IMG/VR virus record: IMGVR_UViG_3300033143_001356
Location: 1 to 52,244 of that record
Source: a virus
Taxonomy: Duplodnaviria > Caudoviricetes
Reading direction: 5' to 3' (one strand)
DNA length: 52,244 nucleotides
The notes below the pieces were generated by a model. It saw nothing but the letters and a program-made list of their open reading frames with translations, searched no databases and was not told where the DNA came from. The position numbers and the translations under genes were made by a program. Shown here piece after piece: positions 21,179-39,654 of the stretch (positions within the stretch are counted from its first letter, which is position 1; each line of letters begins with the position of its first letter).

Positions 21179-21335
21179 TATTTTTCACAGCCGGCTCAAG
21201 AAACTGCCTCAATGCAAATATCTCTTTCTGCATACGAGTAATCTCCGTCTCGGTGAATACAGCTATTGTCCTTATAGCATCTTCGCCTTGCAGTCCTTCT
21301 GTCTGAAGCGGAGGTACGTCTTGGTGTATTTCCAT
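21138..21335 (-). CDS. Small tail-associated hypothetical protein
   Basis: 65-aa ORF coupled to the nozzle gene. Confidence 0.55.
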   Translation of the reverse strand: MEIHQDVPPLQTEGLQGEDAIRTIAVFTETEITRMQKEIFALRQFLEPAVKNNDNTPNQEFNPLE

Positions 21336-23497
21336 TACCTGTTACCCTCCGGGTCATAATGAAGTTCCGCCTCTCTTATTTCAAAGTCCGAACCCGCCAC
21401 GCTATCCCAACATATCTGAACCCGTTTAGAACTACGGTTCATATATGTATCATATTTTTCCCAGTCACTCGTCAGGGTTTGGGTTAGGTCAACCCATCCT
21501 GTTTCCGATGTATCGAAACTTGCTGTTCTAAATCTTGTCTTTACGCCACCGTTACCTGAAGTTTTCTCTTTAGCGGTGTACGATATTTTATTCCATCTTG
21601 CATAATTGCCGGGTTCACCCATATCTATCACCGGAGATAAGTGCCTACATGCTATATTGTTCCCATCCTCTGTAGTGTACGTTTCATCTAATTGATACAC
21701 AAATCCTGTGGCGTCACCTAAAAGGATTCGCTCTGCCACCTGCACTTCATTTAATTCGTCGTTATAGGTAGAACCCGATGGGCAGAATAAATTTCCTGTC
21801 GTGTCACCTGCGAATACGGGAGTGTCCGAGGATAGGTCGGCTATTCCTGTTCCGGTAGAGTCGGGACTTCGAGTAGAGTCTCTTGGCGCAACGTAAACAG
21901 TAACAGAATAATCGGTAGTTGCTCCATCTTTCAAAGAACAAACGTCAGTCAACTGATAATAATGAGTTCCATGAGGCATATCACCTGTATCAGAGCCATC
22001 ATCTATTTTAAGAATAAGTCCTGACCATGTAGTTCCGTCCATGTGTCTTGTGCAGTCTATCAACTTAGTGGGGTCATTGGAATAACTAAAACAGAGCAGT
22101 AACCCACCTTCACTTAAATCAACTTCGCCTGCTTTCCAGCTAAAGTCATAATCTGCCGTTGCCGACATAGTTGACCAGTCTATAGCATTAGCGGTATTCT
22201 CACATAAAACGTCACCATACCTTATAGTTACATCGCCAGCAGTTGATGTGTCCACAAAACCAGCGTCGTAAGGACTTAGTGTGTTAAGAGCGTCCTGATA
22301 TGTGTCGCCGGTGGTATATGTCTGCGAACCCGCCAGAGATACAGCGGTTATCCCATCAGCAGAACCAAAAGTATTAGAGAAGTCACGAACCGACCATGCA
22401 CCCGTAGCCATATTCATTATGTATGCTTTAGTGATAAATTCAGAAGCGTTAGGTACGATGAAAATATAAAGATACCTGTTCTCTTCGCCAAATGCCATCC
22501 AGCATCTCGCTTCGTATATAGGGTCAAGGTCGTCCTGTAAGAACTTATGTATCTTATCGCCTATCATCTGTATTGACGTACCACCGTAATAAGCATATAC
22601 ATTATAGTCACTGCCTACAAAGTAATGGGTGTTACCCTTGACAGTAAGTAGATGAGGGGCAAGCAGGCCAAGGTCGGGTATTACGGGGCGTGGCGAAAAG
22701 ACTGTGGTGCCACCAACATAACCTAAGTCCCAGATAGAGTTGTTCTGATATATGATATATAACCCGCCCATTGGTGCAGACCAGATATTCTCTCCTCCAG
22801 TATCTACAAGGTCAACAAAACCTGAACCTGTGCCTGTCCATGTCTGGAGTTTGGAAATTACCGGCCATTGAACTCTCTGTTTATTAGTGGACCATGCCTT
22901 AGACGAAGACGAGTAAGTGAGTGGGCTTATCTCAATAAGTCTGTTCTTGTACGCACCCACCTGTAATGCTCTATGAGTAGAACCGTCGTGATACCCACCG
23001 CCACCTACAACATCATGGAATGTGGTTTCGTATTTACCCGCCCATCTCTGGATATTACTCATGCCACCATCACACACAATCAGATGGTAATACTCAACGC
23101 TCTGGGCGGCATTATCATTCAGGTATATATCGGTGTCATTATGTGCTATCGGAACATAACTGACAGGATGGAATATATCCGAGTTTGCCACTGTGCCGGT
23201 CTTGTCGTCCCACGTCTCTGCTACACGATTATGGAGATATATCTTTTCCGTAGTTACCGCAAGGGTGTGAGCGGTTCTGTCGGACTCTGTGTATGGGATT
23301 ACCGATAGAACAGTATCGCCGGAATTCAAGCCTGTAGTAGTAAGGTCTACCTTAGCAAAACCATAAGGCGTAGTCATTATACCGTGTTCGTATAGGATAT
23401 TCTGTGTGCCGTAAGACGCACCTCGTGGGTCTATCATATTATTAGACACCATAGCGTCAAGACCAAGATCAAGTTTTTGTACTAAAATTGAAGGCAT
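21335..23497 (-). CDS. Tail nozzle / DNA-stabilisation beta-propeller protein (T7 gp12/P22 gp10-like)
   Basis: 720 aa, beta-rich, with ..GLLAP.., YFVGSD.NVY.Y.G and Y..N..TG.WS motifs; syntenic position. Confidence 0.72.
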   Translation of the reverse strand: MPSILVQKLDLGLDAMVSNNMIDPRGASYGTQNILYEHGIMTTPYGFAKVDLTTTGLNSGDTVLSVIPYTESDRTAHTLAVTTEKIYLHNRVAETWDDKTGTVANSDIFHPVSYVPIAHNDTDIYLNDNAAQSVEYYHLIVCDGGMSNIQRWAGKYETTFHDVVGGGGYHDGSTHRALQVGAYKNRLIEISPLTYSSSSKAWSTNKQRVQWPVISKLQTWTGTGSGFVDLVDTGGENIWSAPMGGLYIIYQNNSIWDLGYVGGTTVFSPRPVIPDLGLLAPHLLTVKGNTHYFVGSDYNVYAYYGGTSIQMIGDKIHKFLQDDLDPIYEARCWMAFGEENRYLYIFIVPNASEFITKAYIMNMATGAWSVRDFSNTFGSADGITAVSLAGSQTYTTGDTYQDALNTLSPYDAGFVDTSTAGDVTIRYGDVLCENTANAIDWSTMSATADYDFSWKAGEVDLSEGGLLLCFSYSNDPTKLIDCTRHMDGTTWSGLILKIDDGSDTGDMPHGTHYYQLTDVCSLKDGATTDYSVTVYVAPRDSTRSPDSTGTGIADLSSDTPVFAGDTTGNLFCPSGSTYNDELNEVQVAERILLGDATGFVYQLDETYTTEDGNNIACRHLSPVIDMGEPGNYARWNKISYTAKEKTSGNGGVKTRFRTASFDTSETGWVDLTQTLTSDWEKYDTYMNRSSKRVQICWDSVAGSDFEIREAELHYDPEGNR

Positions 23498-24495
23498 TAC
23501 TGGGTATTATCTCCGAAAGGAAGCCAATAAACTTTACCAGAAGTCCAAGCCGTATTATCACTACTGACACACCATGTATCTCCGGCCTTAACAGGAAAAG
23601 AAAGGCCAGTCCTTTTGCCGCTTCCGCCCTCTATGCTCACCCTTGCCGTAGCTACTGGGGTCTTGCCAACCAATTTGAGGGCAGTAGCCGTCTTTAATGC
23701 GTAAGTTGTTACCATTCCATCTGTCACAGCAGTCCAAGTTACGTCGTGCCCTAAAGTGCCATCTGATGTTCTCTCTGACCAGTCGCCGAACATATTAACT
23801 GATACAATAGATGTACTGTCGCCCACTACACCATCAAAGGTAAGTGTAGCTTCGCCTGTAATTACCGTATCACCAACAACTGTAGTGCCGTCTATAGATA
23901 TATCAGCATGGAAAGCGGCGTCGCCGCCCACAGTAAAGGTACTGTCAACAGAACAGTCACCAACAATCTTTGCATTGCCTCCAAGAGCAAACGCACCGTC
24001 AACGGTAAGGTCACCACCGATGGCCATATTTGCGTCAAAACTAACATCGCCAACCACACTTAATGTGGCATCAAACTGATGGCCGCCCTGCCAAGTAACA
24101 TCTCGCCCGCCCCACTGTAAGTCAGGGTGCATTTTAAGAACTGTAAAGTCGCCACAAGTGCTTGTCCCTGCGGCTGAAGTATTACAGAACAGGACACCCC
24201 AATTACTTGTGTCGCTATATGCCCATATCAACCCTCTGGCACGATAAGTACCATCCGCAACAACAGTAACAGTACAGTCGTCGGTATAGTCCACGCCCAG
24301 AACAGCAGAACCACCCGGAGTATGTATGCCCCCAACAGTAGCGTCAGCGAAGGTGGAATGTTCTTGGTCAAGTCTTTTTCGCACAGCCTTGGCCACATGT
24401 TGTTGCTCTCTATAATCTAATCCGTGTGGCTGGTCAACGTCAAGGGCTTCTAATGAATCCCAAGCTGCTCCATCGCCACTTGCGTGTACGCCCAT
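23497..24495 (-). CDS. Short tail fibre/needle-like virion protein
   Basis: N-terminal tail-anchor-like segment, (V/G)GD.(T/S)V beta repeats, C-terminal FPVKAGDTW motif. Confidence 0.65.
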   Translation of the reverse strand: MGVHASGDGAAWDSLEALDVDQPHGLDYREQQHVAKAVRKRLDQEHSTFADATVGGIHTPGGSAVLGVDYTDDCTVTVVADGTYRARGLIWAYSDTSNWGVLFCNTSAAGTSTCGDFTVLKMHPDLQWGGRDVTWQGGHQFDATLSVVGDVSFDANMAIGGDLTVDGAFALGGNAKIVGDCSVDSTFTVGGDAAFHADISIDGTTVVGDTVITGEATLTFDGVVGDSTSIVSVNMFGDWSERTSDGTLGHDVTWTAVTDGMVTTYALKTATALKLVGKTPVATARVSIEGGSGKRTGLSFPVKAGDTWCVSSDNTAWTSGKVYWLPFGDNTQ

Positions 24496-24496
24496 A

Positions 24497-25087
24497 TTAT
24501 AACTCCTTAAATGCTTTCAAATATTCTTCTAAAGTATTAACACTAAACACCTCTCTTTCTTCTTCCATATCAACTCGATGAATCCTTAAATCTTCACCGT
24601 TATACAAATGTTCTTTTCCTCTCATCTTTTCTAACGCCTGAACAGTAACTACTTCTACGTCTATTCCTTCCTTTGTCGAAGAAGGCAGGGAATCGTGATG
24701 GTTATATGTGTACTCGGCACCGGACTCCAGATGTTCCTTTATTACATGGTTTATAATCGTCGATGTAACAAACGGACAATCTGCTGTAACCCTCACGATA
24801 TGGTCAGCATCACATATCTTAGCTGCGTTCCTTAGTTCGCCGGTCAAGTCTCTTTCGCCCGGCCATACAATAGCGGTTCCACACACAAACCTTGTCAAAT
24901 CATCGTCCGGCGTACAGACTATCGCTTGGTCAACGTCACTTTCTTCCATAGTACAAAGGACATATCCGACCATTGTAGTGCTGCCCATTGGAAGAACAGA
25001 CTTAGCCGGTAATCGCCTACTGCCCAATCTTGCATTTACTACTCCAAGTATCACATTGACCCCTTTGGAAAGAACCTTGCCGCACAA
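24497..25087 (-). CDS. SpsF/KdsB-like CMP-nonulosonate cytidylyltransferase
   Basis: ARLGSRRLPAKS, IVRVTADCP, G.DVEV and SVNTLEEY motifs of the SpsF/PseF/NeuA family. The true start is probably a few codons downstream. Confidence 0.85.
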   Translation of the reverse strand: MCGKVLSKGVNVILGVVNARLGSRRLPAKSVLPMGSTTMVGYVLCTMEESDVDQAIVCTPDDDLTRFVCGTAIVWPGERDLTGELRNAAKICDADHIVRVTADCPFVTSTIINHVIKEHLESGAEYTYNHHDSLPSSTKEGIDVEVVTVQALEKMRGKEHLYNGEDLRIHRVDMEEEREVFSVNTLEEYLKAFKEL

Positions 25088-26370
25088 TGCGGGCAGTATG
25101 TTTGTTTGCTCATAGCTTCCAATATCTGGACATTTCCTTTTGCTGCAATACAGATATTTTTCAGATATTCCTGGTTGACCATTGAGAACTTTCTCTTGCA
25201 GATACCACAGAAACCTTCAGTCAAGATTTTGGTTTGGTCTTTAACTACATTCAATGTGTCGTAATCCAAATGCGCCCTCGGCCAGCAATACTTGAACTTG
25301 CCCTTGACTCCGTTTATTTCCTTAGCAGCACGTTTGAAAGCATTGCCGTCCATTTTACCGTATCGGCCCGTCTCTAATTCCTTGATGGCTTTCTTGTCGG
25401 CGTTGGACTTATCTGCTTTTGTTATCGCAGTGGCCAGTTCGTTCAAGTCTTCAAACATAGGAGATACACGACTCAATGCACTGCCCGATTTAATCCACCA
25501 TCCACAAGAATACTTCTCATTAACATCGCAATACTGAAACGCCGGTTTATTCATGCAGTGCATTTCCATGCCCATCGTAGAACCGGAATGAACCAGAATA
25601 TCTGTGTTCACTAAGATGTCCGTTGCAGTCGATTCCGTATCAAGCGGTATTTTCATCTGGGCAAGAGCTTGTTTGTAAGGTTCAACCAAAACGCCTGGAT
25701 GAAGCGTAACTAAGATATTACATCCCAACCTTTGTTTGAGTCCGCCGATCATAGCTAAATACTTATTCCTGCCCTCAACTTCTTTTTGGACATTCACCAT
25801 TTCGTCAATACTCAGATCAGGGGCGGAATCACAGAACCCCCACGGCGAGGATATTGTCAGGATTTTCTTTTTCGGGTCAAAGCCCCATTTCTTACAGAAG
25901 TCTTTCTTAGACGTGAACTTGCTCCTGAATCCTTTCTGTTTGTAGATGTCTAACCCAAAAGCGCCAACGGCTATTGCCGGGAAACCTGATTTTCGTCTTT
26001 CAAGTATTTGAGCCTCGTCATCGCCCCAGACAAGTTCCTTGTCAATGTCATATCGCCACCGACCGAGAATATTCTGTTTGGTAGCTTCGTCGCCTTCCTT
26101 GAAATCCTTCCAGTCGCAGCTCGCTTCGGTGTGACGAGAAACGATACCTATACCAAAGTCTCTACATGTTTCCGCTAAATCCCTTGAGTAAGGGTTCCTT
26201 ATAGGTGGGAATACCACTACGTTCGGCTTGTAACTAAGAATAGCGTCACGACCTTGCCTTAGGCACGGCACAACTTTGACCTTGTTACCTAACAGTTCCA
26301 ATTCTTCTTTGATTAGGTTGTCAACCACTTCGTCCCTGTGGGGACTTGCTGATAAAATCAGTACCTTCAT
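25051..26370 (-). CDS. GT-B-fold surface carbohydrate biosynthesis protein; candidate nonulosonyl transferase
   Basis: N-terminal RD..D..I..EL...G, central LHP motif and D.LVH.GST...E.....KP, as in CMP/CDP-sugar GT-B transferases; C-terminal CxxC...CxxC. Confidence 0.6.
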   Translation of the reverse strand: MKVLILSASPHRDEVVDNLIKEELELLGNKVKVVPCLRQGRDAILSYKPNVVVFPPIRNPYSRDLAETCRDFGIGIVSRHTEASCDWKDFKEGDEATKQNILGRWRYDIDKELVWGDDEAQILERRKSGFPAIAVGAFGLDIYKQKGFRSKFTSKKDFCKKWGFDPKKKILTISSPWGFCDSAPDLSIDEMVNVQKEVEGRNKYLAMIGGLKQRLGCNILVTLHPGVLVEPYKQALAQMKIPLDTESTATDILVNTDILVHSGSTMGMEMHCMNKPAFQYCDVNEKYSCGWWIKSGSALSRVSPMFEDLNELATAITKADKSNADKKAIKELETGRYGKMDGNAFKRAAKEINGVKGKFKYCWPRAHLDYDTLNVVKDQTKILTEGFCGICKRKFSMVNQEYLKNICIAAKGNVQILEAMSKQTYCPHCAARFFPKGSM

Positions 26371-27168
26371 TTATTCTTCCTTTCTTAAAATTAGTCTCAC
26401 TTCAGTTCTTCCGCCAAAACCACGTTTGAATTTACTTATGTTAGCCAGCTTATCATCTCCGTATACCTGCTCGCCCATCTCGAATCGCTTACAGCCTATT
26501 CTCTTAGCTTTGAGTATCGCTTCCCACATAAGAGCATGACTGTCTACCGTAGAACAACCTGAAGCATAATAGGCGGCGTCTTTATTGTAGTACACTATCA
26601 ATCCTGCGTCAGTTACGACATTAGACGGTAACGGGTTATGAGGATGTAGAAAATGAGTCTGTGTCAAACAGAATGCCTGTCTCTGCCATATCATACGGTT
26701 TTGAATATCCCACGTCTCTTGTGGTCGGGTAACACCTCTAATCGACTCATGTAAACTCTGGTAAGCACCTGTATCGAACATTGTATTTACCATGATGTCT
26801 TTATTCACAAGCGACTTGTAACTCTTACGAAGTCCTCTGCGTAGCTTTTCAGTCGGTAAGGTCAAGTCGATAACCTGCGTATAGTACGGCGTAGCCTTAT
26901 GGCCTCTGGCCGATAGGAACCTGCTGATAGGCGAAAGACCGTCCATAAGAAAGTCCATGTAATATATGTCCTGAGACATACTCCATAGTCGCATTACATA
27001 CGCCATCGGATCAGGGCCGTGGTAAACCATAGGTCGCCAGTAGCCTGTTATCTTGCCGTCTTTTAGTGCCGCATGGCCATGAGGTTCATACGGTCCGCTC
27101 ATCGCTTGGTTGTACTCCCTGTCCAGCGGCGAATAAAGCGGCGTCAATTGAGAAATAGAGACTGTCAT
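26371..27168 (-). CDS. FemAB-related GNAT acyl/aminoacyl transferase
   Basis: IDLT......LRKSYKSLVN, YYASG, H.LMWEAI..AK..G...FE.G and FKRGFGG motifs. Confidence 0.8.
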   Translation of the reverse strand: MTVSISQLTPLYSPLDREYNQAMSGPYEPHGHAALKDGKITGYWRPMVYHGPDPMAYVMRLWSMSQDIYYMDFLMDGLSPISRFLSARGHKATPYYTQVIDLTLPTEKLRRGLRKSYKSLVNKDIMVNTMFDTGAYQSLHESIRGVTRPQETWDIQNRMIWQRQAFCLTQTHFLHPHNPLPSNVVTDAGLIVYYNKDAAYYASGCSTVDSHALMWEAILKAKRIGCKRFEMGEQVYGDDKLANISKFKRGFGGRTEVRLILRKEE

Positions 27169-27640
27169 AAAATTTTCCTTGCCATAACTTCCTGTTCGGT
27201 AATACGGCTGTTGAACCCTTATACTTATCTGCTATCTTTAACCAAAACTCTACTGCTTCGTTACAGTAATAGCATTCGCCGAAAACTGTCTTGAGGCCGA
27301 GATTGTCAAATGCTTCGTGCAACAGCATGTCAACAGCCTCTATACCATAACCCTTTCCCTGTAATGTTGGGTTGATTATAAGGCTAATCTCTCCCAACTT
27401 GTTCTCCCACTGGATATTAGTGATACCGCCCATACCCATAAGAATATCAATGTTATTCGTACAACAATAGTCATACTCTTTAATCAACCAATACCTGTGC
27501 TTATTCGTATCAAGATTTTTTAGGAACCTTGATTGGTCTACTTCCGTCAGGGGGTGTGGCGTTCTTAACGCTTGCAGGTTTTGGTTTCTCCACAGTCTTA
27601 TCGTCTGTAGGTCTGTCAGGTTCAGTGCTTCCAGCTTCAT
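27086..27640 (-). CDS. PseH/RimL-type GNAT N-acetyltransferase
   Basis: DL..IR.WRN, I.W.N..GEISL.I.P...GKGYG and AF..LGL motifs. Start placed at ATG 27640 behind a GGAG RBS. Confidence 0.82.
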   Translation of the reverse strand: MKLEALNLTDLQTIRLWRNQNLQALRTPHPLTEVDQSRFLKNLDTNKHRYWLIKEYDYCCTNNIDILMGMGGITNIQWENKLGEISLIINPTLQGKGYGIEAVDMLLHEAFDNLGLKTVFGECYYCNEAVEFWLKIADKYKGSTAVLPNRKLWQGKFYDSLYFSIDAALFAAGQGVQPSDERTV

Positions 27641-28889
27641 TTTTATTCTCCGGCAATCTAAAGGTTTCTTCGGGTACATCGCCTTTCAAGGCGTCCATCG
27701 GATTATCCCAATACTTTCGTACTATTTTCATAGCCGCTCTCATTGCGCCGATAGTTTCATCTATCACTCCCAACGTGTGAGAATATGATATAAACTGTGC
27801 ATAACCGAGAAGTACGCCACGATACAGACATTCCTGCCAGAACAAGGCTTTATGCTCCGGTGTGGGGAATATGAAGTAAGTTCTGGGTGCAAGGCCCTTC
27901 AGGTACACTTCGTCGCTCAATCCCATGCCATCAGTAATCGTCTTAAACAAACCCTTGAGACGGTCGCCCATCTTCCATATCTGGTCAATTACATTATGGG
28001 TTTGCATATACTCAATGGTTGCTATAGCAGCTGTGATTGAAGCTAACTCAGCACCAAAGGTAGACGATACAAAGCAGTCGCCCTGTAATACGTCCATCAT
28101 ATCCTTTTTGCCGCAGACACAACTGATAGGCATACCGTTTGCCATCGCCTTGCCTAAACACGTCAAGTCAGGTGTTACGCCGTAGTAGGCTTGTGCGCTA
28201 AACTTCTTAGTGCGGAAACCCGTTACAACTTCATCAAAGATAAGTACCGTTCCATTCTCTGAACATATCCGGCGAATGTCCTCAAGGAAGTTCTTGTCAG
28301 GTTCATCAAGGATATACGGTTCCATGATAACAGCAGCGATCTTGCACTCGTTTTTTGTACCCATCTTGGCTGTGAAGTCGTTAATGTCGTTGTAAGTAAA
28401 CTTCTCTATCGACTTTGTAAGGGCATCGGGTATACCGTCTTTCTTGTCGTTGACTATTGCGAACCAGTCATGCCAGCCGTGATAACCGCAACACAGAACT
28501 TTTGTTCTCTTGGTGTACGCCCTTGCGATCTTAACCGCTGCACTTGTCGCTTCGGAACCAGTCTTTACGAACCTCACCTTTTCGGCACTTGGGATAATAT
28601 CGCATATCTTTATCGCAAGTTCCGTTTCAAGTGGTGACGGTAGCGAGAAACACAAGCCCTTTGGCAGTTGGTTGCTTATCGCTCTGTTCACATATTCATG
28701 GGCATGACCTAAGATTATCGGGCCTAAACCTAATGGATAGTCTATGTACTTCTTATCACCTGACCATACATAAGCACCTTCGGCTCTGTCGATATACTTA
28801 GGGTAAACCCTGTTGACATGCTTACTCGGCATTTTACTTAACGTCTGCACTCCGTCGGGAATGTACTTTAATGTTTTGTTCCAATCCAT
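27510..28889 (-). CDS. Class III PLP aminotransferase (GSA-aminomutase-like sugar aminotransferase)
   Basis: KYIDY..GLG..ILGH, KTGSEAT..A, GYHGWHDW, LIFDEVVTGFR and PDL..GKAMANG motifs; GVQTLSK N-terminus typical of sugar-cluster homologues. Confidence 0.88.
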   Translation of the reverse strand: MDWNKTLKYIPDGVQTLSKMPSKHVNRVYPKYIDRAEGAYVWSGDKKYIDYPLGLGPIILGHAHEYVNRAISNQLPKGLCFSLPSPLETELAIKICDIIPSAEKVRFVKTGSEATSAAVKIARAYTKRTKVLCCGYHGWHDWFAIVNDKKDGIPDALTKSIEKFTYNDINDFTAKMGTKNECKIAAVIMEPYILDEPDKNFLEDIRRICSENGTVLIFDEVVTGFRTKKFSAQAYYGVTPDLTCLGKAMANGMPISCVCGKKDMMDVLQGDCFVSSTFGAELASITAAIATIEYMQTHNVIDQIWKMGDRLKGLFKTITDGMGLSDEVYLKGLAPRTYFIFPTPEHKALFWQECLYRGVLLGYAQFISYSHTLGVIDETIGAMRAAMKIVRKYWDNPMDALKGDVPEETFRLPENKNEAGSTEPDRPTDDKTVEKPKPASVKNATPPDGSRPIKVPKKS

Positions 28890-28900
28890 GTTCTTCCTTT

Positions 28901-29500
28901 CTAAAATTTCCTTGTATCAACTTCTTCGTTATGTTCAAACTTTTCCATCTTTACGAGATGGGCTACGTTATCTCTTAACTGGTCAACTGAATCAACGCCG
29001 ATTATTACCTTATCTATCCGTGGGTTCATCAGGACGAAATCTATACATTCTCTTGGACTGAAGTATTTCAGGGCTTTACCTTTACAGAAGATGGAACGGG
29101 CGATGATTCTTGGTGGTTCTGGCTCGATGTTAAAATGCAACAATTTTTTGTTCATAATAGAGTAGGGCAATTCCACATAGCGTGCCGACGTTGGGATTAT
29201 TTCTCCAGCCTCTTTTTGTATCGACAACCCTTCGTGGGTGACTTTTCGGTAATCTCCAAATTTATGAGCAAGTAATATGTCTTGGCCGTGGACAAAGAAA
29301 CCCGGCTTACTGCTTTTGTATATTCTATTGAATTGCCTTAATCCAATATGCCCTGTCCCATAAGCCGTGGCAACATCCAGCCATTCGATACCAACATCTT
29401 TCATGTATTCCATGATGAGTTGCTGTTGGGTTTCGTCTACACAATGGCCGTTATATTCACGGCCCCAGTTCGCTGTTCCTACTACTAATCGTTCAAGCAT
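28901..29500 (-). CDS. Shortened aldo/keto reductase
   Basis: L.VGTANWG..Y, LDVATAYG, ELPYSI, ARSIF..G and IIGVDS..QL motifs. Confidence 0.78.
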   Translation of the reverse strand: MLERLVVGTANWGREYNGHCVDETQQQLIMEYMKDVGIEWLDVATAYGTGHIGLRQFNRIYKSSKPGFFVHGQDILLAHKFGDYRKVTHEGLSIQKEAGEIIPTSARYVELPYSIMNKKLLHFNIEPEPPRIIARSIFCKGKALKYFSPRECIDFVLMNPRIDKVIIGVDSVDQLRDNVAHLVKMEKFEHNEEVDTRKF

Positions 29501-30405
29501 TGCTCCACCTTTCCAATAAATACTTCTTCATCCATTCGTTTAGCCTTATCCGAAGAGTAAGGTTTATCCCACGGATAATGGGCAGTACAATCCAAAGTAA
29601 CCATAGACACTTTCTCGCCGTCTTCCGAAACTAATGATTCGTGTATCTTCTCGCCCGGCCTTACACCGATAACCTCAAACTCACAGTCGGGAATAATGGC
29701 CCTCGCTACATCGGTTATCTTCATAGCCGGTGCGCGAGGGACCAATATCCAGCCACCCTTAGCCGTATTCAAACCCAACATTACAAGGTTTACCGCCTCT
29801 TCAAGCGTTATCCAGAACCTTGTCATGTCAGGGGAAGTAATTGGAACCTTTTTAATTCCCTGCTTTCTTAACTTGTAAAAGAGCGGTATTACAGAGCCAC
29901 GCGAACCTATAACATTTCCATACCGAGTAACTACAAATTCGGTTTTGTTATAAGCGTTTGCAGCGAGAAACAATTTCTCTGCGCACAGCTTCGTAGCCCC
30001 ATAAAGATTGACAGGATTAACCGCCTTGTCAGTCGAAACAAACACGCATTTTTCGACCCCATTGGCGTTACACGCACTAATAACATTCATGCTTCCCTGT
30101 ACATTAGTCTTTATTGCTTCTTCGGGGTTATACTCTAAAGCAGGAACTTGCTTTAACGCGGCGGCGTGAACAACATAATCCACACCAGACATAACCTGCA
30201 TTAACCTTTGTTCGTCCCTAACGTCGCCTAAAAAGTATCTCGGTTCGGGAAAGTCCTTTGCCATTTCTGACTGTTTGAACTCGTCCCTACTGAAAACGAT
30301 AACCTTTTCAGGCTTACTTTCGAGTATTCTCTTTATTAACTTTTTACCAAGTGACCCGGTACCGCCAGTCACTAACACTGTTTTTCCTAACAGGCTCGCA
30401 TCCAT
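29485..30405 (-). CDS. pseB: UDP-N-acetylglucosamine 4,6-dehydratase (inverting)
   Basis: VTGGTGSLG, SRDEFKQ, HAAALKQVPALEYNP, STDKAVNPVNLYGATK, RYGNVIGSRGSVIP, MTRFWITL and RPGEKIHE motifs. Confidence 0.92.
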   Translation of the reverse strand: MDASLLGKTVLVTGGTGSLGKKLIKRILESKPEKVIVFSRDEFKQSEMAKDFPEPRYFLGDVRDEQRLMQVMSGVDYVVHAAALKQVPALEYNPEEAIKTNVQGSMNVISACNANGVEKCVFVSTDKAVNPVNLYGATKLCAEKLFLAANAYNKTEFVVTRYGNVIGSRGSVIPLFYKLRKQGIKKVPITSPDMTRFWITLEEAVNLVMLGLNTAKGGWILVPRAPAMKITDVARAIIPDCEFEVIGVRPGEKIHESLVSEDGEKVSMVTLDCTAHYPWDKPYSSDKAKRMDEEVFIGKVEQCLND

Positions 30406-31205
30406 TTCCCTTCAATTTCCTTTCTTCTAAACCTTTTCTTACCGCCGTATTGGACCTTACCAATACTCTTCTCGGCGGCTCTTACTATCTCTGTCATCGC
30501 TGCAAACTGGACCGGCGTAAGAGCGAAACTCTCGTCCAGTCCACCGTTCACTTTGATGTGCTTCTCTAATACTGTTGCGCCTAACGTCATAGCGACGACC
30601 GGAACTACATAACCGGATGAATGGTCGCTCATGCCGACCTTACAGTTGAACTTTCTCAACTTCGCCATAGTTCTTAAATTCATCTTGGCAGGGTCAGCGG
30701 GATACTCACTGACACACCACAACAGAGTTATGTCCTTTGTGTACTTCTTGGCTGTCGTTATAGCCGTTTCGATCTCTTTGTATTCTGCCATACCTACCGA
30801 CATCAGTATCGGTTTCTTGGTCTTGGCTACAGTTTCAATTAACTCCAGCCACGGTAATTCAAAGGACGAAATCTTATATCGCTCTATTCCCATCTCTTCT
30901 GCGGTCTTTACCATGTCAGGATGGTACACCGTAGCGATGAATCCCATCTCTAACTGTTGACACAGTTTCTTTAGTTTAGGCACAAACTCTAAGGGCATTG
31001 CGGCTTTTTCATACAGTTCATACAATGTGTGTCCTGCCCACGGACCATCCTTGATTATCTTACCGCTTTCCAACGCCATCTGGTCAGGAGTGAACATCTG
31101 GACCTTGATAGTGTCTGCGCCTGCTTCCTGAGCGGCAAATACCAAATCCAGAGCCGTCTGGTAATCCTGATTATGACTCGCACCTATTTCAGCTATTATT
31201 TCCAT
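30387..31205 (-). CDS. pseI: NeuB-family nonulosonic acid synthase (PseI-like), lacking the C-terminal SAF/AFP domain
   Basis: IIAEIG..H, GAD.IK.Q, GPW.G.TLYELY, KISSFE, CVSEYPA, G.SDH and EKH motifs; ends shortly after FRR. Confidence 0.82.
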   Translation of the reverse strand: MEIIAEIGASHNQDYQTALDLVFAAQEAGADTIKVQMFTPDQMALESGKIIKDGPWAGHTLYELYEKAAMPLEFVPKLKKLCQQLEMGFIATVYHPDMVKTAEEMGIERYKISSFELPWLELIETVAKTKKPILMSVGMAEYKEIETAITTAKKYTKDITLLWCVSEYPADPAKMNLRTMAKLRKFNCKVGMSDHSSGYVVPVVAMTLGATVLEKHIKVNGGLDESFALTPVQFAAMTEIVRAAEKSIGKVQYGGKKRFRRKEIEGKWMRAC

Positions 31206-31518
31206 CTGCTCCTATCCTTACTGTTCCCGCAACCGTACACCCTCGCGGTATTTCTTTAAGGTCAACATTTTTCCAGTCATTATCAATCCATTTTTTTATA
31301 ACCGCCCATTCGTGGTCATGGCAATTATATACTTTGCATTCTCGCGGCCTCTGTTCACCCAAGGCGCATCCGCCATGCACCCAAAATCCATCCTTGTCTG
31401 ACCACAGATGTTTATTGTCTTCGGTTATGTACGAACCAAACTTTCTTGCGCAAGGCGAGCAACACCCCTTCAATGTCTGTATCGGACAATAACCGCTACA
31501 TTGGAATTCTTTATTCAT
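31189..31518 (-). CDS. Cys-rich hypothetical protein heading the sugar cluster (109 aa)
   Basis: MNKEFQCSGYC...GCC..C...GC.L...RP.EC..Y.C; the start overlaps the adaptor stop. Confidence 0.6.
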   Translation of the reverse strand: MNKEFQCSGYCPIQTLKGCCSPCARKFGSYITEDNKHLWSDKDGFWVHGGCALGEQRPRECKVYNCHDHEWAVIKKWIDNDWKNVDLKEIPRGCTVAGTVRIGADGNNS

Positions 31519-32191
31519 ACCAGTTCCCTGACCATTCGTGCATAGTATCATTTTGGCTTTTGTACTCTTCAAACCATTCAAAGAACTTTGCTCGCCATAT
31601 CGCTGCGTCAGTAGCTTTTTCTGCACCTATCGCAACGAAAGCCTGCCACACACCGTAGTCTATAAGTCCTTCGTCAGCGTCGTTCAGGCTTGAACTAAGG
31701 GCATCCGTTATATCAATCGGGTAAACACCTATATCGAATCTAAAGTCCTTGTCGCAATATTCCGTCAGACACAGCGGCATGACCTCAGCGTAATTCCCCC
31801 GACGAGTCCACGCGTTAGGTTGAATATGCGGTATATCGGTATGGGTCGGGTCGGGATACTGATTATCAAATTCGTCAATCGGAAGATAAGTCAACTTCCG
31901 CGTCAAATTACCGTCAAGATAAAATATATCGAATACATGAGCAGTCCTGTTGGATGTAGTTACATCGGATAATCCTGACGTGATCTCGGCCAAAGGCCAC
32001 CTTAACTGAACTGTCGTATCCAGAGACGTTGTGTTCTTGAACGTAAGTTCATGTAAGCCGGGAACTTTTTCGGCTATTATCCTCTGGGCTTCGTTTTGCC
32101 ATCGCGCACAACGCGCATCCGTAATAAGAACCGCATCATTAGTGCGTCCACACAACGCTTGTATTTCATCTGTTATTGCTGAACTTATCAT
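31511..32191 (-). CDS. Head-tail adaptor / tail tubular protein A-like
   Basis: ..W.NEAQR.IA N-terminal helix and L.DY..W.A C-terminal helix; located after the capsid genes. Confidence 0.7.
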   Translation of the reverse strand: MISSAITDEIQALCGRTNDAVLITDARCARWQNEAQRIIAEKVPGLHELTFKNTTSLDTTVQLRWPLAEITSGLSDVTTSNRTAHVFDIFYLDGNLTRKLTYLPIDEFDNQYPDPTHTDIPHIQPNAWTRRGNYAEVMPLCLTEYCDKDFRFDIGVYPIDITDALSSSLNDADEGLIDYGVWQAFVAIGAEKATDAAIWRAKFFEWFEEYKSQNDTMHEWSGNWYE

Positions 32192-32205
32192 ATTTTGCCC
32201 CAATC

Positions 32206-33228: not shown

Positions 33229-33243
33229 AACAATACTCCTTTC

Positions 33244-33918: not shown

Positions 33919-33953
33919 AATTTAATCCTTAAAAAATAAACCTTCCTTTTCAA

Positions 33954-34985
33954 TTACGAAACATTATTTAACCACAAACTCCCGTTGGGTTTCCAGCACA
34001 TGAAGTTACCGGAGATCAGGATTCTTGACAGCCACATATCGTAGCCGTTAGAGTTCTTGCCCTGCCATTCAAAGTCTGTCATCTTGAAGTTTCTGGCAGT
34101 ATGGAACCTGAGTTCCCAATGTTCGAGGTTGAGGATAAATACCCAGTTTCTCATCGTTGAAGTAGTCTGGAGATAAGGAACGCTCACGATTGTATGTTTG
34201 TCGAGTTCCATCTTGTTAAAGCCTTGTTTCTGCTTGTCGCCAGTTGGATGATACTGAACCTTACCTTCCATCTCTGCTCTTAGTTTATTGAACAGAGTAG
34301 GACACATACAAATATAAAGGTCTCTCGGAGTCTTCATGTGATGAGATACGTCGGTTTCCGTAATCCATTTACGAAGGTTTGATATTGTAATATTATATGC
34401 GGTCGCCTGTGCGCTTGAGGTCGTATTGACGTTCAAGCCAGCCGGGTCCGCACCCTGCCACCAGTCATTTGTTCCGCCCGACCAACTTCTTGTCAGTGTA
34501 CCATAGGTAACATCATGGTCAAGTGCAGATACTAACGACTGGAACTGTGTTGCGCCGTCTGCTACGCCTGTCTCAGAGCCTACGTTGAATATTTTCTTGT
34601 TCAGCCACAAGCGAGTAGCATTATGGCCCTTAGAGACCAACTGGTCTGCAAGGTCAAGCAACTGCTCTTCTGTACCTGCAAGGATATTCTGTGTATACTC
34701 TTCAAGGCCATACCTGAGAGGCAACTGGGCATACTTCCAGAGGAACCTTGGTTTCTCAAGCGTGTCCTTTGCTTCGTCAGTCAGCGCGGTGTTAGGCGTG
34801 TATTCCTGCATCAAATCGTCGATTTCATCGGTATCTACCAGACGCTCTACATACTTACCACCTGAGTAGGTAATCTGGTTCCGACTCTGTAACGCTTCGA
34901 CTACAGGCGTCGCCATATATACTTCGTCCACCTTAGAACGTAGAAACAGTTCTCTGGTGGCGTTTGATAAATCGTTCAAAGCCAT
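33954..34985 (-). CDS. Major capsid protein (HK97 fold)
   Basis: 343 aa after the scaffold; L...T.......D.V....P, GG..., F.WK and LLD motifs typical of podoviral capsid proteins. Confidence 0.82.
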   Translation of the reverse strand: MALNDLSNATRELFLRSKVDEVYMATPVVEALQSRNQITYSGGKYVERLVDTDEIDDLMQEYTPNTALTDEAKDTLEKPRFLWKYAQLPLRYGLEEYTQNILAGTEEQLLDLADQLVSKGHNATRLWLNKKIFNVGSETGVADGATQFQSLVSALDHDVTYGTLTRSWSGGTNDWWQGADPAGLNVNTTSSAQATAYNITISNLRKWITETDVSHHMKTPRDLYICMCPTLFNKLRAEMEGKVQYHPTGDKQKQGFNKMELDKHTIVSVPYLQTTSTMRNWVFILNLEHWELRFHTARNFKMTDFEWQGKNSNGYDMWLSRILISGNFMCWKPNGSLWLNNVS

Positions 34986-35006
34986 TTTTTTAGTCCTTAA
35001 TTAAAT

Positions 35007-35705: not shown

Positions 35706-35787
35706 TTTTAACTCTCCAAATTCATTTTCAGCACATGGCTGTTTCGTTATAGAGAAGCACGTTAAATCTATGCTGGCCGATTGGCAT

Positions 35788-36036
35788 TTAGCCCTTTGGC
35801 TGCTTCGATTGCACTTCTTCCAGTTTTATTTTAAGCGCATGTATATTACGCTTTACTCTCGCACTTGCAGGTCCGCCCTGAGTATTGTGGAACGCTGCCT
35901 CTAATTTTACTATTTCATCCCGAATAGCTTTCGTCGGGTCAATTTTTTTCGGTAATGGTTTGTTTGAAACCGTCTTTGCTTGTTTCTGTACTTTTTTCTT
36001 TGGTGATTTCCGTTTTAATTTCTGTACCTTTTTCAT
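35788..36036 (-). CDS. Small basic protein overlapping the portal 3' end
   Basis: AAGGA RBS before ATG 36036; Lys-rich. Confidence 0.5.
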   Translation of the reverse strand: MKKVQKLKRKSPKKKVQKQAKTVSNKPLPKKIDPTKAIRDEIVKLEAAFHNTQGGPASARVKRNIHALKIKLEEVQSKQPKG

Positions 36037-38014
36037 TGTTATCCTTTGCTTGTAAAGCGATACTATTCTCTACTTTCTGCCGAACACCCTCAACGAGAAT
36101 CCTCACACCCTCATCGGGCGTAATCTTTCCTTCGGCAACCATTGTGTAAAGTTCCTGGAACTGCATCCAGTCCTGCCATATCGAACTTTCACTCAACAAC
36201 TTCTTCCAGTTCGGTACCTCCAGCGCTTTAAGTATCTCCGGCAACATTGGATTGGGAGGCGCACTCATTAACTCATATGCCTTCATTAGTTTCACTAATC
36301 TCTTTTCAGAGTCCATCGGTATCGCAGGTGCCGGCTGAATATCAACGTCAAATTTTACCAGAGACATCTCTTGAGTGATCTGCATAACACCAGCAGATTT
36401 ATCTTCTCCGACTATTCGCACCCATCTTTCGGGTTCGTAGTTCGCCTGACATATTTCAGCTACCAATTCACAGCACTTTCGCACCCATTCCGTTTCATAA
36501 ACATTCTGTAAAGCTATCCTGTCGTGAGACGATATAGCGAGATAACTCGACTCTGTGGCGGTAATATTGTTTCCAGCCTTGCCCTGAGCGACATCCTGAA
36601 GACCTAAGAGGTTCTTGAATTCCTGTGTAAAGAGTCCGTAAAGCTGAAGTGCCGCCGCTGATGGAGTAACAGGATTTACAATTTGAACCCTCTTGCCGCT
36701 AATAGCTCCCTTTACCACCCTAATTATCGACCCTGCCGCCTTACCTATACGGAAATGTTCCTTACTTCTGCCTGGAGGTGTATCAATCGCACCTTTTTCG
36801 ACTATTATCTTCGGGTCGCCGAACATCTTCATGTTATTGGTCAAATGAGACACAGTGACATTTATCATGTCCTGTACATTCTTGTATAACGTAACACCGT
36901 TGATTCCTTGCCACATGAACGGTAAGAGGTAATGAGGGGTTACAACAAAAGGCCAACGTGAATACGGGTACTTCTGGTCGTCAGGATTAAGAATAAGGTC
37001 GTCAACGTGGATGACATACCGCCCCGTTGGATAATCAGGCTCTTTCCATTCTTTTAGAGTTCGCGTAGGCCATTCATCGAGCGGGACGGTTGTGCCATTT
37101 TTATCATAAAATACCTCATCTTGTTCGTATACCTCGCCTGCGTCCATCAACTCTTGCGGAGGAATGTCCTCTTCTGTCTTCTGGTCGGTTTCTGAATAGT
37201 CTTTGAAGTAAGTCTCGTTCAGTTTGACGAACTCAGTGTCGTCGTTCACCTCAACGTCAGACATTTTATCGGCGTCAAGGACTCTGTCAAGGATATAGTT
37301 AGTTGAATCTGCGCCTAACCCTTTGTCTATCCCGCCTTTGCCTTCGTTTGGATAAGTACCGGCAGAGGCAAGCTGGCCCCTGATGGTAGTATCACCACCT
37401 GCGACCAAATCCTTGTATTTGCTGGCTTTGTCGGCGAGTTGTTTCTTGTATTTCGACCATCGGGACTGTGCCCACTCCAGCGGAACATATCTTTCGGTAC
37501 CGCAATCGCCGTTTTCTATCTTTTCGTCGTCAGAAGCCCAGAATTCGGCGGGATGCCACAACTTATGCTGGGTGTCGCCCATCCAAACCTTTTGTTTGTC
37601 ATCCCAAGTACATCTACCGTCCCAGAAAATCTTACTCACACGGTACCCGAATATCTTCCCGCACAGGATAGCCTGAATCTGTTCAAGGCGCATACCTGTT
37701 TTGTTCAATCCCTTTTCCCATTGCCACTGGAGATTGCTCTGCCATGCCTCGGCAGCGACGGAATCATTGTCCTCCCACGGCAAGCAGTGAATCTCGCTGA
37801 AATTCTTGCTCAATTTGGCGATCTCCTGCATTGCAGACGGCCAGATATAGTTTATAACTATCCAGTCCCATTCTTTATGCTCTTTCTTATGTGCAAGCTG
37901 GTCGCCGAAGAAGTACCGCAATGATTCCTGCCACATAGTGACCCATTTTTTTGTTTTAGCCATGCCAGCATCCTCTTTTCTTTTAAGGAGCTGTATGAAT
38001 TCGTCATGTTTCAT
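35939..38014 (-). CDS. Portal protein (P22 gp1-like)
   Basis: 691 aa; W....RYF.GDQ, INYI, PFV, QD.IN, G..DV.QG, TAT and FDV.I motifs. Confidence 0.88.
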   Translation of the reverse strand: MKHDEFIQLLKRKEDAGMAKTKKWVTMWQESLRYFFGDQLAHKKEHKEWDWIVINYIWPSAMQEIAKLSKNFSEIHCLPWEDNDSVAAEAWQSNLQWQWEKGLNKTGMRLEQIQAILCGKIFGYRVSKIFWDGRCTWDDKQKVWMGDTQHKLWHPAEFWASDDEKIENGDCGTERYVPLEWAQSRWSKYKKQLADKASKYKDLVAGGDTTIRGQLASAGTYPNEGKGGIDKGLGADSTNYILDRVLDADKMSDVEVNDDTEFVKLNETYFKDYSETDQKTEEDIPPQELMDAGEVYEQDEVFYDKNGTTVPLDEWPTRTLKEWKEPDYPTGRYVIHVDDLILNPDDQKYPYSRWPFVVTPHYLLPFMWQGINGVTLYKNVQDMINVTVSHLTNNMKMFGDPKIIVEKGAIDTPPGRSKEHFRIGKAAGSIIRVVKGAISGKRVQIVNPVTPSAAALQLYGLFTQEFKNLLGLQDVAQGKAGNNITATESSYLAISSHDRIALQNVYETEWVRKCCELVAEICQANYEPERWVRIVGEDKSAGVMQITQEMSLVKFDVDIQPAPAIPMDSEKRLVKLMKAYELMSAPPNPMLPEILKALEVPNWKKLLSESSIWQDWMQFQELYTMVAEGKITPDEGVRILVEGVRQKVENSIALQAKDNNEKGTEIKTEITKEKSTETSKDGFKQTITEKN

Positions 38015-38601
38015 ATAAATAAATTCTCGTAAACCATTTTAATTAGTTCAAAAAACTCCGACTGCGACAAATCAGATTTGGCTCGGTTGCAGTATTTACA
38101 ACAAGATACAACATTTTCAGCAATATATCCTTTTTTGCTATCTACTCTATCAACTCCGTTGTAAACATACTCTCCTTTGCGTCGGGGATGTCTCAGGATA
38201 GCAAACGGAGGCCGACCGCAATAATAACAATCACCTTTTGTTAATTTACGAAACTCAATTTTGTTTATCGCAAAAATCAACCCACGGTCTTTTGCTGTAT
38301 GCTGGTATTGGCTATATAAATGGTTAAACACAGATTCGCCAACTGCCAATTCTTTATTGTTCGGCCTGCCCCGCAAACAACCGCAAGACCTTTTGTGTCC
38401 GTTTCGTAGTTGGCTTGTTTTTGCCGTTGTTATTTGCCCACATTCACATCGGCACAACCATAACCGCTGGTTATCCTTGCCTTCTGTTCGCTCAATAACA
38501 ACCAATTTGCCAAACTTTCTGGCAAACATTGTTTCGGGTGTGCCATAAACCCCCGCATCCTCTGTATGTTTGAGCAGTGTCATAGATTTTTCGTTTGTCA
38601 T
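38011..38601 (-). CDS. HNH homing endonuclease
   Basis: FGKLVV...WLCRCECG...SCGC N-terminus; CYYCG...NGVDRVDS.KGY...NVV.CC..CN..K nuclease domain. Confidence 0.82.
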   Translation of the reverse strand: MTNEKSMTLLKHTEDAGVYGTPETMFARKFGKLVVIERTEGKDNQRLWLCRCECGQITTAKTSQLRNGHKRSCGCLRGRPNNKELAVGESVFNHLYSQYQHTAKDRGLIFAINKIEFRKLTKGDCYYCGRPPFAILRHPRRKGEYVYNGVDRVDSKKGYIAENVVSCCKYCNRAKSDLSQSEFFELIKMVYENLFI

Positions 38602-39005: not shown

Positions 39006-39166
39006 ATTTCTCCTAAAATAAAAACTTTCTTGCACTGAGGACAAGTAATATCATCACCTATGTCAGCATAACCAACTTCATCGTCAATATCGTGCGAGCA
39101 ATACGGGCAGGCCGCAACCAATACCTCTCGTACATCCCAATCCCTGCAAACTTTCTTTTTGACCAT
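39002..39166 (-). CDS. Zinc-ribbon protein
   Basis: CPYC...CPQC; AGGAG RBS before ATG 39166. Confidence 0.6.
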   Translation of the reverse strand: MVKKKVCRDWDVREVLVAACPYCSHDIDDEVGYADIGDDITCPQCKKVFILGEI

Positions 39167-39213
39167 ATTCTTTCTCCTAAACACAAATTACATTGTTATG
39201 AATTCTTCGTTTT

Positions 39214-39654
39214 TCATAGCGAAACTGGTCCCCAATACCCTTTAATGAACCCGCCACAGAATCCTTTTACGGTAGAACTCATACACAGCGAATATGTAGC
39301 ATCTGCCGTTAAACACGCAATAGGGTCGTCCTTGAAGTCCCATACCTGAGATAATCCGCCACTGTACGAAGAGTCTCCTGCCGGAAGGGTGACTATTTTT
39401 AGCCCTGTTGACCCGTCCATCACCGATAGGGCACCGCCGGAAGAATCACCAGCGGTAAGCTGAATATATTCCAGCCAGAACGCAGACTTCGTTATATCCG
39501 CATTGGTCGGGTCCTTGCCGAATATCCGCTCGTCGGTACCGCCGGTACTGTCGAACTCAATACCGTATTTACCACTGTTGAAATGAAGAAAATTTCCGTA
39601 TCCTACAGTAAACTCACAGCACCCCGACATATCTGAACTTGTTACTAATGCCAT
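39214..39654 (-). CDS. Putative virion surface protein
   Basis: 146 aa, beta-rich, Gly/Ser/Thr-rich, with dense D-x-S/T motifs; AGGAG RBS. Confidence 0.55.
   Translation of the reverse strand: MALVTSSDMSGCCEFTVGYGNFLHFNSGKYGIEFDSTGGTDERIFGKDPTNADITKSAFWLEYIQLTAGDSSGGALSVMDGSTGLKIVTLPAGDSSYSGGLSQVWDFKDDPIACLTADATYSLCMSSTVKGFCGGFIKGYWGPVSL

Follow-up and report, generated by a model that had tools for sequence, protein, structure and literature searches.

In a podophage genome recovered from IMG/VR (record IMGVR_UViG_3300033143_001356; complete, with direct terminal repeats, and analysed here over its whole length of 52,244 bases, hereafter the window), half of the Asp residues of five predicted virion proteins are followed by Ser or Thr two positions later (D-x-S/T), and a cluster of sugar-related genes lies among the structural genes. 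Comparison with relatives indicates that the motif, more fully [D>E]-x-[S/T], is created and maintained by selection in several unrelated exposed virion proteins, and only in the lineage that carries, inside the structural module, a nonulosonic acid pathway and its own form of a BFO_1060-like GT-B enzyme. On the strength of the sequence data, we consider it probable that D-x-S/T is an O-glycosylation sequon for a pseudaminic-acid-type sugar made by the phage itself. The broader proposal, that heads and tails in a large and diverse clade of uncultured environmental podophages are covered with this self-made sugar and that a TagF/BFO_1060-like glycosyltransferase of the GT-B fold reads [D>E]-x-[S/T] as a portable sequon, we regard as evenly balanced.

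The five proteins are two probable capsid decoration paralogues (224 and 216 amino acids (aa)), a fibre-like protein (332 aa), a nozzle protein (720 aa) and a 146-aa protein encoded upstream of the portal gene (Table 1). Over all five, Ser or Thr occupied the +2 position for 72 of 144 Asp residues, with 27.3 predicted from composition. The motif had first been picked out by eye in a sequence-only reading of the window, and our recount returned identical values for the decoration proteins (11/18 and 10/16), the fibre (20/35) and the 146-aa protein (8/12), as well as for the major capsid protein (3/21); the absence of an excess from the portal and enzymes, also described there, was confirmed by our counts. 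For the central segment of the nozzle the reported excess held, and the count of 14/26 hinges on segment limits that were left unstated; we found 16 of 28 Asp residues in the motif within aa 401–620, against 6.0 expected. The whole nozzle had 23/63 (11.8 expected), with 5/27 (4.6 expected) in its conserved part (aa 1–400) and 2/8 in aa 621–720. The motif N-x-S/T occurred only 0–4 times per window protein.

Shuffle and binomial tests, with the +1 and +3 offsets as controls, had been proposed in the same reading; we ran them, and the excess lay far beyond chance in every one of the five proteins. When the residues of each protein were shuffled 20,000 times, 9, 0, 2, 1, and 7 of the shuffles attained the observed count, and binomial p values ranged from 7e-4 to 8e-7. 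Both control offsets were flat, and there was no excess at any offset from −3 to +1, at +3 or at +4 (for +1, counts of 13, 6, 3, 2, and 3 against 11.8, 6.7, 3.1, 3.2, and 2.5 expected). An unbiased scan of all 20 × 20 residue pairs at offsets 1–5 in the five proteins placed D+2T (42 vs 15.0 expected, z 7.4) and D+2S (30 vs 12.4, z 5.2) first and second among 2,000 pair and offset combinations. In a crude open reading frame (ORF) call of the window, exactly these five of 62 ORFs reached p < 1e-3, and none of the others reached p < 1e-2.

The excess acts at the protein level rather than the DNA level, because Asp codons were used alike inside and outside the motif (GAC 41/GAT 31 in the motif, GAC 40/GAT 32 elsewhere) and because the excess persists in clade members with a guanine-plus-cytosine (GC) content of 62–63% (10/17 and 9/16 Asp residues in L085 and L087), compared with 44–46% here. 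DNA tandem repeats were absent from the region apart from one 15-bp row. A DNA-level cause was thus ruled out by equal codon use, the lack of tandem repeats and an excess kept from 44% to 63% GC.

We then compared the window with relatives, which were collected from IMG/VR by a capsid-protein search and a decoration-profile search (53 loci in two groups). The near clade comprised phages with a capsid protein at least 53% identical to that of the window, and the far clade those at 24–47%. All near-clade decoration homologues were enriched (7–15 motifs per 13–24 Asp residues) at only 26–38% identity to those of the window, and the sugar cluster was found in the same place in every near-clade locus that reached past the adaptor gene. 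Far-clade decoration homologues, in contrast, had 1–6 motifs per 6–23 Asp residues, and no NeuB/PseB was seen within 10 kb in far-clade loci. Where whole records were searched, NeuB was present in 3/3 near-clade and 0/7 far-clade ones, two of the latter being 100% complete with terminal repeats. The other families behaved in the same manner (sums over individual loci): fibre homologues carried 133/287 motifs in the near clade (48.6 expected, about 2.7-fold) vs 26/130 in the far clade (26.1 expected, 1.0-fold), and nozzle homologues 163/461 (84.9 expected, about 1.9-fold) vs 56/341 (51.4 expected, 1.1-fold). The comparison with phages lacking the cluster, suggested in the sequence-only reading as a possible refutation, therefore separated enriched cluster bearers from far-clade homologues without such enrichment (1.3–1.5-fold for decoration), an outcome that favours the idea. 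Control proteins pooled over both clades were flat (portal 0.98, scaffold 0.65, terminase large subunit 1.14, sugar enzymes 0.5–1.2), as was the capsid protein (138 vs 140.5 expected over 41 homologues, ratio 0.98).

At a larger scale, a decoration profile run against 1.84 billion cluster representatives returned 271 family members, of which the best 150 were used for statistics after those shorter than 150 aa were dropped. Among the best 55 of the 271, which are mutually less than 50% identical, 556 of 978 Asp residues were in the motif (173 expected, 3.2-fold), followed by a sharp step after rank 55 to 270/1,181 at ranks 56–150 (191 expected, 1.4-fold). The +1 and +3 offsets stayed at 0.8–1.3 in both groups (near-group +1, 0.80–0.88), and in the near group D+2T (z 26) ranked above the conserved WFW pairs that are the family's own. 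A NeuB scan of viral contigs added 77 loci, ten of which belong to the clade of the window. The remaining 67 NeuB-bearing loci, from other viruses, had no 439-aa homologue and none of their 1,354 six-frame ORFs reached p < 1e-3; since only ±10 kb around NeuB was in view and structural genes often lie outside it, this result serves as a specificity control and not as a test of those viruses.

The anatomy of individual sites resembles that of a sequon. In an alignment of 57 near-clade and 23 far-clade decoration sequences, the motif was present in at least 50% of near sequences at seven columns, with D at position 0 and E as its main substitute, up to nine or more residue types at +1, and alternating T and S at +2 (e.g., T32/S23, S39/T8, T21/S21); far-clade proteins had unrelated residues at these columns. 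In columns where D alternates with other residues, D and the +2 Ser/Thr co-varied, with a Mantel-Haenszel odds ratio of 3.07 (far clade, 1.37); the +1 and +3 offsets gave 0.77 and 0.73. Sites also turned over, with the motif found in 64 columns in at least one sequence, in 23 columns in at least 10% and in seven in at least 50% of sequences, and despite this turnover the number of motifs per decoration protein was steady at 10.1 ± 2.2. E-x-S/T was 1.76-fold enriched in the near clade vs 0.77-fold in the far clade, and N-x-[ST] was not enriched in near-clade decoration proteins (89 vs 101 expected, 0.88-fold). The middle residue had been described as freely varying, and many types do occur; over 544 sites in the 55 decoration representatives, however, R was absent, K occurred once, P four times (0.1-fold), and D and W were depleted (0.2-fold). 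In the window, the middle residues of the nozzle include R, K, and E, once each, none of which had been listed before. Cys alternated with Asp at position 0 in alignment columns 224 and 175 (residues 118 and 99 of the 224-aa protein; D23/C18 and C18/D16/E8) while +2 stayed T or S, and C-x-[ST] stood at 1.98-fold in the near clade and 0.56-fold in the far clade; this Cys may stem from the alignment itself or be a further residue that is tolerated there.

The enriched proteins belong to different families. The 224-aa protein carries its motif Asp residues at D31, D37, D54, D86, D107, D127, D145, D168, D181, D199, and D210. In a search with VIA-align, its AlphaFold2 model (predicted local distance difference test (pLDDT) 83.3, predicted template-modelling score 0.84) matched phage or archaeal-virus capsid entries in 14 of 14 top rows, almost all of them decoration or cement proteins, at low Z values of 5.4–3.4; a Foldseek search of the same model returned nothing at E ≤ 0.001. 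Because of this structural comparison and the gene position beside the capsid gene, the 224-aa and 216-aa paralogues are likely decoration proteins. The number of decoration genes varies among relatives, with one to four tandem paralogues (L022, L023, L034/L053, L042); two are present in the window and one in each of the relatives nearest to it (L001–L003). About 40% of far-clade decoration proteins (L029, L034–L039, L042, L049, L051) begin with M-A-D-S/K/G-T, an N-terminus that the near clade does not have.

In the fibre, motifs were gained in a clade-specific way at conserved columns, for example at the column "faDxTvgg", where 10/10 near-clade sequences vs 1/5 far-clade sequences had the motif. 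A beta-helix or hexapeptide repeat was ruled out for this protein by the irregular motif spacing and by far-clade fibres that share the conserved N-domain without the motif. For the 146-aa protein, the six near-clade homologues pooled had 35/69 Asp residues in the motif (13.3 expected). No recognised family matched it, and Atlas returned viral hypothetical clusters only; kinship with the decoration family or with a 163-aa neighbour was ruled out by comparison, and we would place it at the virion surface judging by gene position only. Among near-clade relatives, the adaptor was also about 2-fold enriched in several, and the 163-aa family was enriched in some genomes (10/17 and 9/21). One near-clade genome (G007, L061–L063) has, away from its structural module, a 204-aa ORF (29359–29973, plus strand) with 7/17 Asp residues in the motif (1.8 expected, p 1e-3); this ORF has no homologue in the window.

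The eight sugar-related genes lie between the fibre and adaptor genes on the same strand as their neighbours. By best match, they would encode a nonulosonic acid pathway of the pseudaminic acid type, and the pathway is not canonical because neither a PseC-type aminotransferase (PF01041, DegT/DnrJ/EryC1) nor a PseG hydrolase of the uridine diphosphate (UDP)-linked sugar (TIGR03590) was found in the genome. The class-III aminotransferase may take over the role of PseC or else act on the sugar, the FemAB-family protein might add an acyl or aminoacyl group to the sugar, and the PseG step might be supplied by the GT-B protein or by a host enzyme. The genome has no Maf-type domain (PF01973), and the window scans recognised no oligosaccharyltransferase or lipid-carrier glycan assembly genes.

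The 439-aa GT-B protein is the sole candidate transferase, as no other glycosyltransferase-like genes were recognised. It matches the BFO_1060 glycosyltransferase family (NF046086) over nearly the full profile (positions 3–362 of 365; E 1.5e-23) and the "surface carbohydrate biosynthesis protein" profile TIGR04396 (60.9 bits). Its AlphaFold2 model (pLDDT 88.9) consists of two Rossmann-like halves and a C-terminal part, and Foldseek listed NeuC and other UDP-N-acetylglucosamine (UDP-GlcNAc) 2-epimerases first, followed by TarL, capsule polymerases, and MshA, all of GT-B fold. When a profile of 53 homologues was compared with solved structures, the only match was the cytidine-diphosphate-binding C-domain of TagF (E 1e-3), through the C-terminal half. 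In these 53 sequences, H224 is invariant and P225 nearly so (an HP pair), and four C-terminal cysteines (C388, C391, C426, C429) are invariant. The latter probably form a zinc ribbon; this could be why homologues are labelled "RNA polymerase subunit RPC12/RpoP" in some sources.

On phage-sized contigs we found 145 homologues of this protein. Some homologues are 600–790 aa long and fused to a kinase-like domain (PF13671; P0255, P0256, P0258; L085:15671–18034), and a few (P0207, P0260, P0261) are labelled as Planctomycetota, Phycisphaerae, and Peribacteraceae metagenome bins, one of them a contig of 52,736 bp; such contigs are probably mis-binned phages and give a weak host hint at best. Far-clade phages without NeuB/PseB keep a 25–31% identical homologue inside the structural module (Table 1). 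That the homologue stands alone in genomes lacking the pathway is more in keeping with a transferase than with an enzyme of the pathway, and the homologue may use a host-made donor or another acceptor rule.

Mechanistically, we propose that the phage enzymes (PseB-like dehydratase, aminotransferase, acetyltransferase, PseI-like synthase, and cytidylyltransferase), with the host filling the gaps, would convert UDP-GlcNAc to a 5,7-diamino nonulosonic acid of the pseudaminic acid type activated by cytidine monophosphate (CMP). The TagF/BFO_1060-like 439-aa protein would then transfer this sugar, in the cytoplasm, to the hydroxyl two residues after Asp. Its targets would be the two decoration paralogues, the fibre, the outer nozzle segment, and the 146-aa protein, joined in relatives by the adaptor and the 163-aa family, such that the particle would leave the cell with an acidic, sialic-acid-like coat. 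The motif statistics, their limitation to particular proteins, the conservation and coupling of the motif residues, the gene content, the GT-B fold, and the co-occurrence among relatives are observed; we infer the modification itself, the residue carrying it, the identity of the sugar, and the action of the 439-aa protein on protein. Phage O-glycosylation is favoured because of the size and specificity of the excess, its conservation across the families, the sequon-like anatomy, its co-occurrence with the cluster in three unrelated families, and the flat interior proteins.

Several observations weigh against this reading. Within the window, the 1373-aa protein (9504–13625), a Ser/Thr-rich protein without Pfam or PHROG match that is probably a receptor-binding tail spike or fibre, showed no excess (25/122 vs 22.6 expected), in contrast to the smaller fibre and the nozzle, and the major capsid protein was not enriched either. 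The dense sugar coat on head and tail proposed in the sequence-only reading would therefore be restricted to some of the proteins. In the decoration model, acceptor positions were in coil about as often as other Ser/Thr residues (8/11 vs 17/29; no real difference). Besides the missing PseC and PseG, the PseH and PseF matches are weak, with generic GNAT and CTP_transf_3 domains clear. The NF046086 score of the 439-aa protein (83.5 bits) is well under the family cut-off of 200, and since the NeuC-type hydrolysing UDP-GlcNAc 2-epimerases are its best structural matches, it could alternatively carry out the PseG/NeuC-type step that the pathway lacks. Moreover, far-clade decoration proteins showed no clear excess with a 439-aa homologue (about 1.7-fold) vs without it (1.5-fold; summed counts), and the fibre and nozzle of far-clade phages with the homologue were not clearly enriched either. 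Known relatives of the enzyme have a sugar as acceptor, namely N-acetylmannosaminuronic acid of a lipid-built glycan and not a protein (PMC5420450). The earlier suggestion that the motifs are acceptor sites for the adjacent transferase is thus borne out in part, in that the excess tracks the sugar cluster and the GT-B protein matches the BFO_1060 family full-length, if distantly; the sugar-directed activity of known relatives speaks against it. Lastly, cluster and motif are found in the same clade, and the link between them may go back to one event in an ancestor instead of to repeated association. An IMG/VR scan for an independent lineage with both a 439-aa homologue and the motif gave the same wider clade only, and among 50,697 GenBank phage records no similar DNA (megablast of the region) or protein (tblastn of the 439-aa and decoration proteins) was found.

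D-x-S/T could also be a real recognition site for another modification or enzyme, such as an acyltransferase, a cytoplasmic glycosyltransferase of the host or a Ser/Thr kinase of either host or phage, or a site where Asp is modified and the +2 Ser/Thr serves as recognition element, with the sugar cluster used for another purpose (e.g., remodelling of the host surface against superinfection). The sequon-like anatomy is silent on chemistry, enzymes known to be related to the 439-aa protein modify glycans rather than proteins (PMC5420450), the genome contains a FemAB-like gene and two GNAT genes, and many other viruses carry NeuB/PseB without the motif. The excess nevertheless tracks the sugar-pathway genes and neither the nozzle-adjacent GNAT nor the 439-aa homologue, both of which also occur in far-clade genomes that are not enriched; the cluster sits inside the late structural module, in the adaptor–fibre interval and on the same strand, and the scanned ORFs contained no kinase. 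We consider this explanation unlikely, and the bolder variant of phage glycosylation, that Asp itself carries the group in a mirror image of N-x-S/T, very doubtful.

An Asp at position i and a Ser/Thr at i+2 can form small hydrogen-bonded motifs, so the pattern may instead be structural or physico-chemical (an Asx-turn, ST-motif, helix N-cap, or metal- or water-binding pair) and favoured for particle stability with no covalent modification. In the decoration model D54, D199, and D168 do lie at hairpin turns or a helix start, and the far-clade decoration proteins are mildly enriched. Yet the excess occurs in at least four unrelated families and is absent at the same columns of far-clade homologues with the same fold. 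Pro is favoured after Asx in Asx-Pro turns but is 10-fold depleted at +1 here, where K and R are almost absent as well. About half of the Asp residues are in the motif, and still the capsid, portal, and enzymes of the same phages show no excess; a purely structural role therefore appears improbable to us. That chance, composition, repeats or a motif chosen after looking produced the pattern, for which one might cite its choice by eye in a single genome and the Ser/Thr-rich fibre and nozzle (about 19%), is already refuted by the composition-keeping shuffles, the pair scan, the lack of DNA repeats, the replication in 55 diverged clusters and several families, and the absence of any hit among the control ORFs.

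The proposed phage O-glycosylation shares features with several known systems. The Bacteroidota motif, D-(S/T)-(A/I/L/V/M/T) (PMC8550257), is likewise an O-glycosylation motif of three residues anchored on Asp, and the Tannerella glycan ends in a pseudaminic or legionaminic acid (Pse/Leg) derivative added by a BFO_1060-family enzyme (PMC8550257, PMC5420450). In that motif Ser/Thr stands at +1, compared with +2 here, and the lack of enrichment at +1 in our data (0.8–0.9-fold) upholds the earlier statement that the two are distinct; the Bacteroidota glycan is also put together on a lipid carrier and joined to its target extracytoplasmically, whereas virion proteins are assembled within it. The transferases BFO_1060, Tanf_01245, and TFUB4_00887 (442–445 aa) adjoin the CMP-Pse or CMP-Leg loci of Tannerella forsythia, and deletion of their genes leaves the O-glycan without its terminal Pse/Leg derivative although the CMP-sugar continues to accumulate; their predicted fold is GT-B/TagB-like with DXD, D/E-D/E-G, and HP motifs (PMC5420450). 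The phage protein resembles them in length (439 vs 445/442 aa), two-domain GT-B/TagB-like prediction, HP motif, and location beside a CMP-nonulosonic acid pathway; the match is distant and, unlike the Tannerella enzymes, it has the C-terminal Cys4 element. N-x-S/T, including its bacterial form D/E-x-N-x-S/T, similarly spans three residues, with Ser/Thr at +2 and a middle residue that varies but is not Pro (PMC11339370); position 0 is Asn there and Asp here.

Comparable too are the Maf and FlmG systems for flagellin, in which a CMP-activated nonulosonic acid (pseudaminic or legionaminic acid) is transferred directly, in the cytoplasm, to exposed Ser/Thr residues of a protein that self-assembles later; for Maf substrates no conserved sequon is known (PMC11339370). 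The candidate here differs in being TagF/BFO_1060-like, the window lacking a Maf-type domain. Mycobacteriophages, as tailed phages, reportedly glycosylate their own capsid or tail proteins with their own glycosyltransferases, by other enzymes and sugars than here, and to our knowledge with no short sequon and no phage-encoded nonulosonic acid pathway.

When present on flagella and pili, the nonulosonic acids, which comprise sialic, pseudaminic, and legionaminic acids, influence motility, recognition by the immune system, and attack by phages. No sequon is known for linking them directly to protein (PMC11339370), which limits site prediction and glyco-engineering. In the literature searched, which lay outside subscription-only papers and supplements, we found no phage-encoded pseudaminic acid pathway acting on virions and no D-x-S/T sequon. 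If the proposal is correct, D-x-S/T would become the first sequon defined for the direct attachment of nonulosonic acids to proteins, no virus having been known before to use such a shield, and a three-residue sequon with one soluble enzyme could place sialic-acid-like sugars on chosen proteins. It would also mean that an abundant environmental lineage, which is large given the 145 homologues of the 439-aa protein alone, devotes about 7 kb of a 52-kb genome to a sugar coat. Among other things, such a coat might protect the particle against proteases or grazers, reduce aggregation, imitate host surfaces, or aid adhesion.

Almost all genes from 9.5 to 43 kb are on the minus strand, and the features of the structural module and the sugar cluster are listed in Table 1.

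Table 1. Features of the structural module and sugar cluster, by position in the window (strand in brackets where given), with the far-clade homologue of the GT-B protein in the last line
Feature	Position	Remarks
Terminase large subunit	13764–15446	Structural module
1168-aa protein and smaller proteins		Between terminase and nozzle gene in the structural module
Nozzle/virion structural protein, 720 aa	21335..23497 (-)	phrog_3287 "virion structural protein" over aa 13–384
Motif-dense central segment of nozzle, aa 401–620	21638..22297 (-)
Fibre-like virion protein, 332 aa	23497..24495 (-)	Weak PHROG matches of unknown function
Sugar-related genes (n = 8)	24497–31205	The eight lines that follow
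Cytidylyltransferase, CMP-sugar synthetase-like, 196 aa	24497..25087 (-)	CTP_transf_3 51.3 bits; KdsB-like; PseF 17.7 bits (cut-off 205.7)
GT-B protein, 439 aa	25051..26370 (-)	NF046086, TIGR04396; GT-B fold
FemAB-family protein, 265 aa	26371..27168 (-)	TIGR04421, E 1.2e-13, 51 bits (cut-off 250)
GNAT N-acetyltransferase, weakly PseH-like	27086..27679 (-)	Acetyltransf_3 52 bits; TIGR03585 PseH 30.5 bits (cut-off 93.1)
Class-III (glutamate-1-semialdehyde-aminomutase-like) aminotransferase	27510..28889 (-)	Aminotran_3 166.6 bits; PRK06209 326.6 bits (cut-off 486)
199-aa protein	28901..29500 (-)	Partial aldo/keto-reductase match PF00248, E 2.4e-7, aa 4–94; conserved in near-clade loci
PseB-like UDP-GlcNAc 4,6-dehydratase, 306 aa	29485..30405 (-)	Polysacc_synt_2 325 bits; TIGR03589 391.7 bits (cut-off 407.75), by far the best match
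PseI/NeuB-like nonulosonic acid synthase, 272 aa	30387..31205 (-)	Pfam NeuB 219 bits, above cut-off; TIGR03586 PseI 257.3 bits (cut-off 340.25), higher than NeuB_NnaB 197.5
145-aa protein	31189..31626 (-)	Between synthase and adaptor genes; no Pfam, PHROG or NCBIfam match; homologues seen in near-clade loci only
Head-tail adaptor, SU10-type	31511..32203 (-)	PF24175 SU10_adaptor; 4/21 Asp in motif, not enriched
98-aa protein		Between adaptor and decoration paralogues
Second decoration paralogue, 216 aa	32578..33228 (-)	39% identical to the 224-aa paralogue
Capsid decoration paralogue, 224 aa	33244..33918 (-)	Directly downstream of capsid gene
Major capsid protein	33954..34985 (-)	phrog_9953; internal negative control
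Scaffold-like protein		Between capsid and portal in the structural module
Portal, P22/SU10-like	35939–38014
146-aa protein	39214..39654 (-)	Upstream of portal gene
Far-clade homologue of the 439-aa protein	L055:6879–8168 (= G001 26879–28171)	Also in L028, L031, L033, L040, L041, L044–L048, L050, L052

An HNH/endonuclease VII-like gene (38011–38601) is located directly upstream of the portal gene within the structural module, and the early region encodes a D12-class N6-adenine DNA methyltransferase (45972–46730, plus strand) and a RusA resolvase (51671–52138, minus strand).

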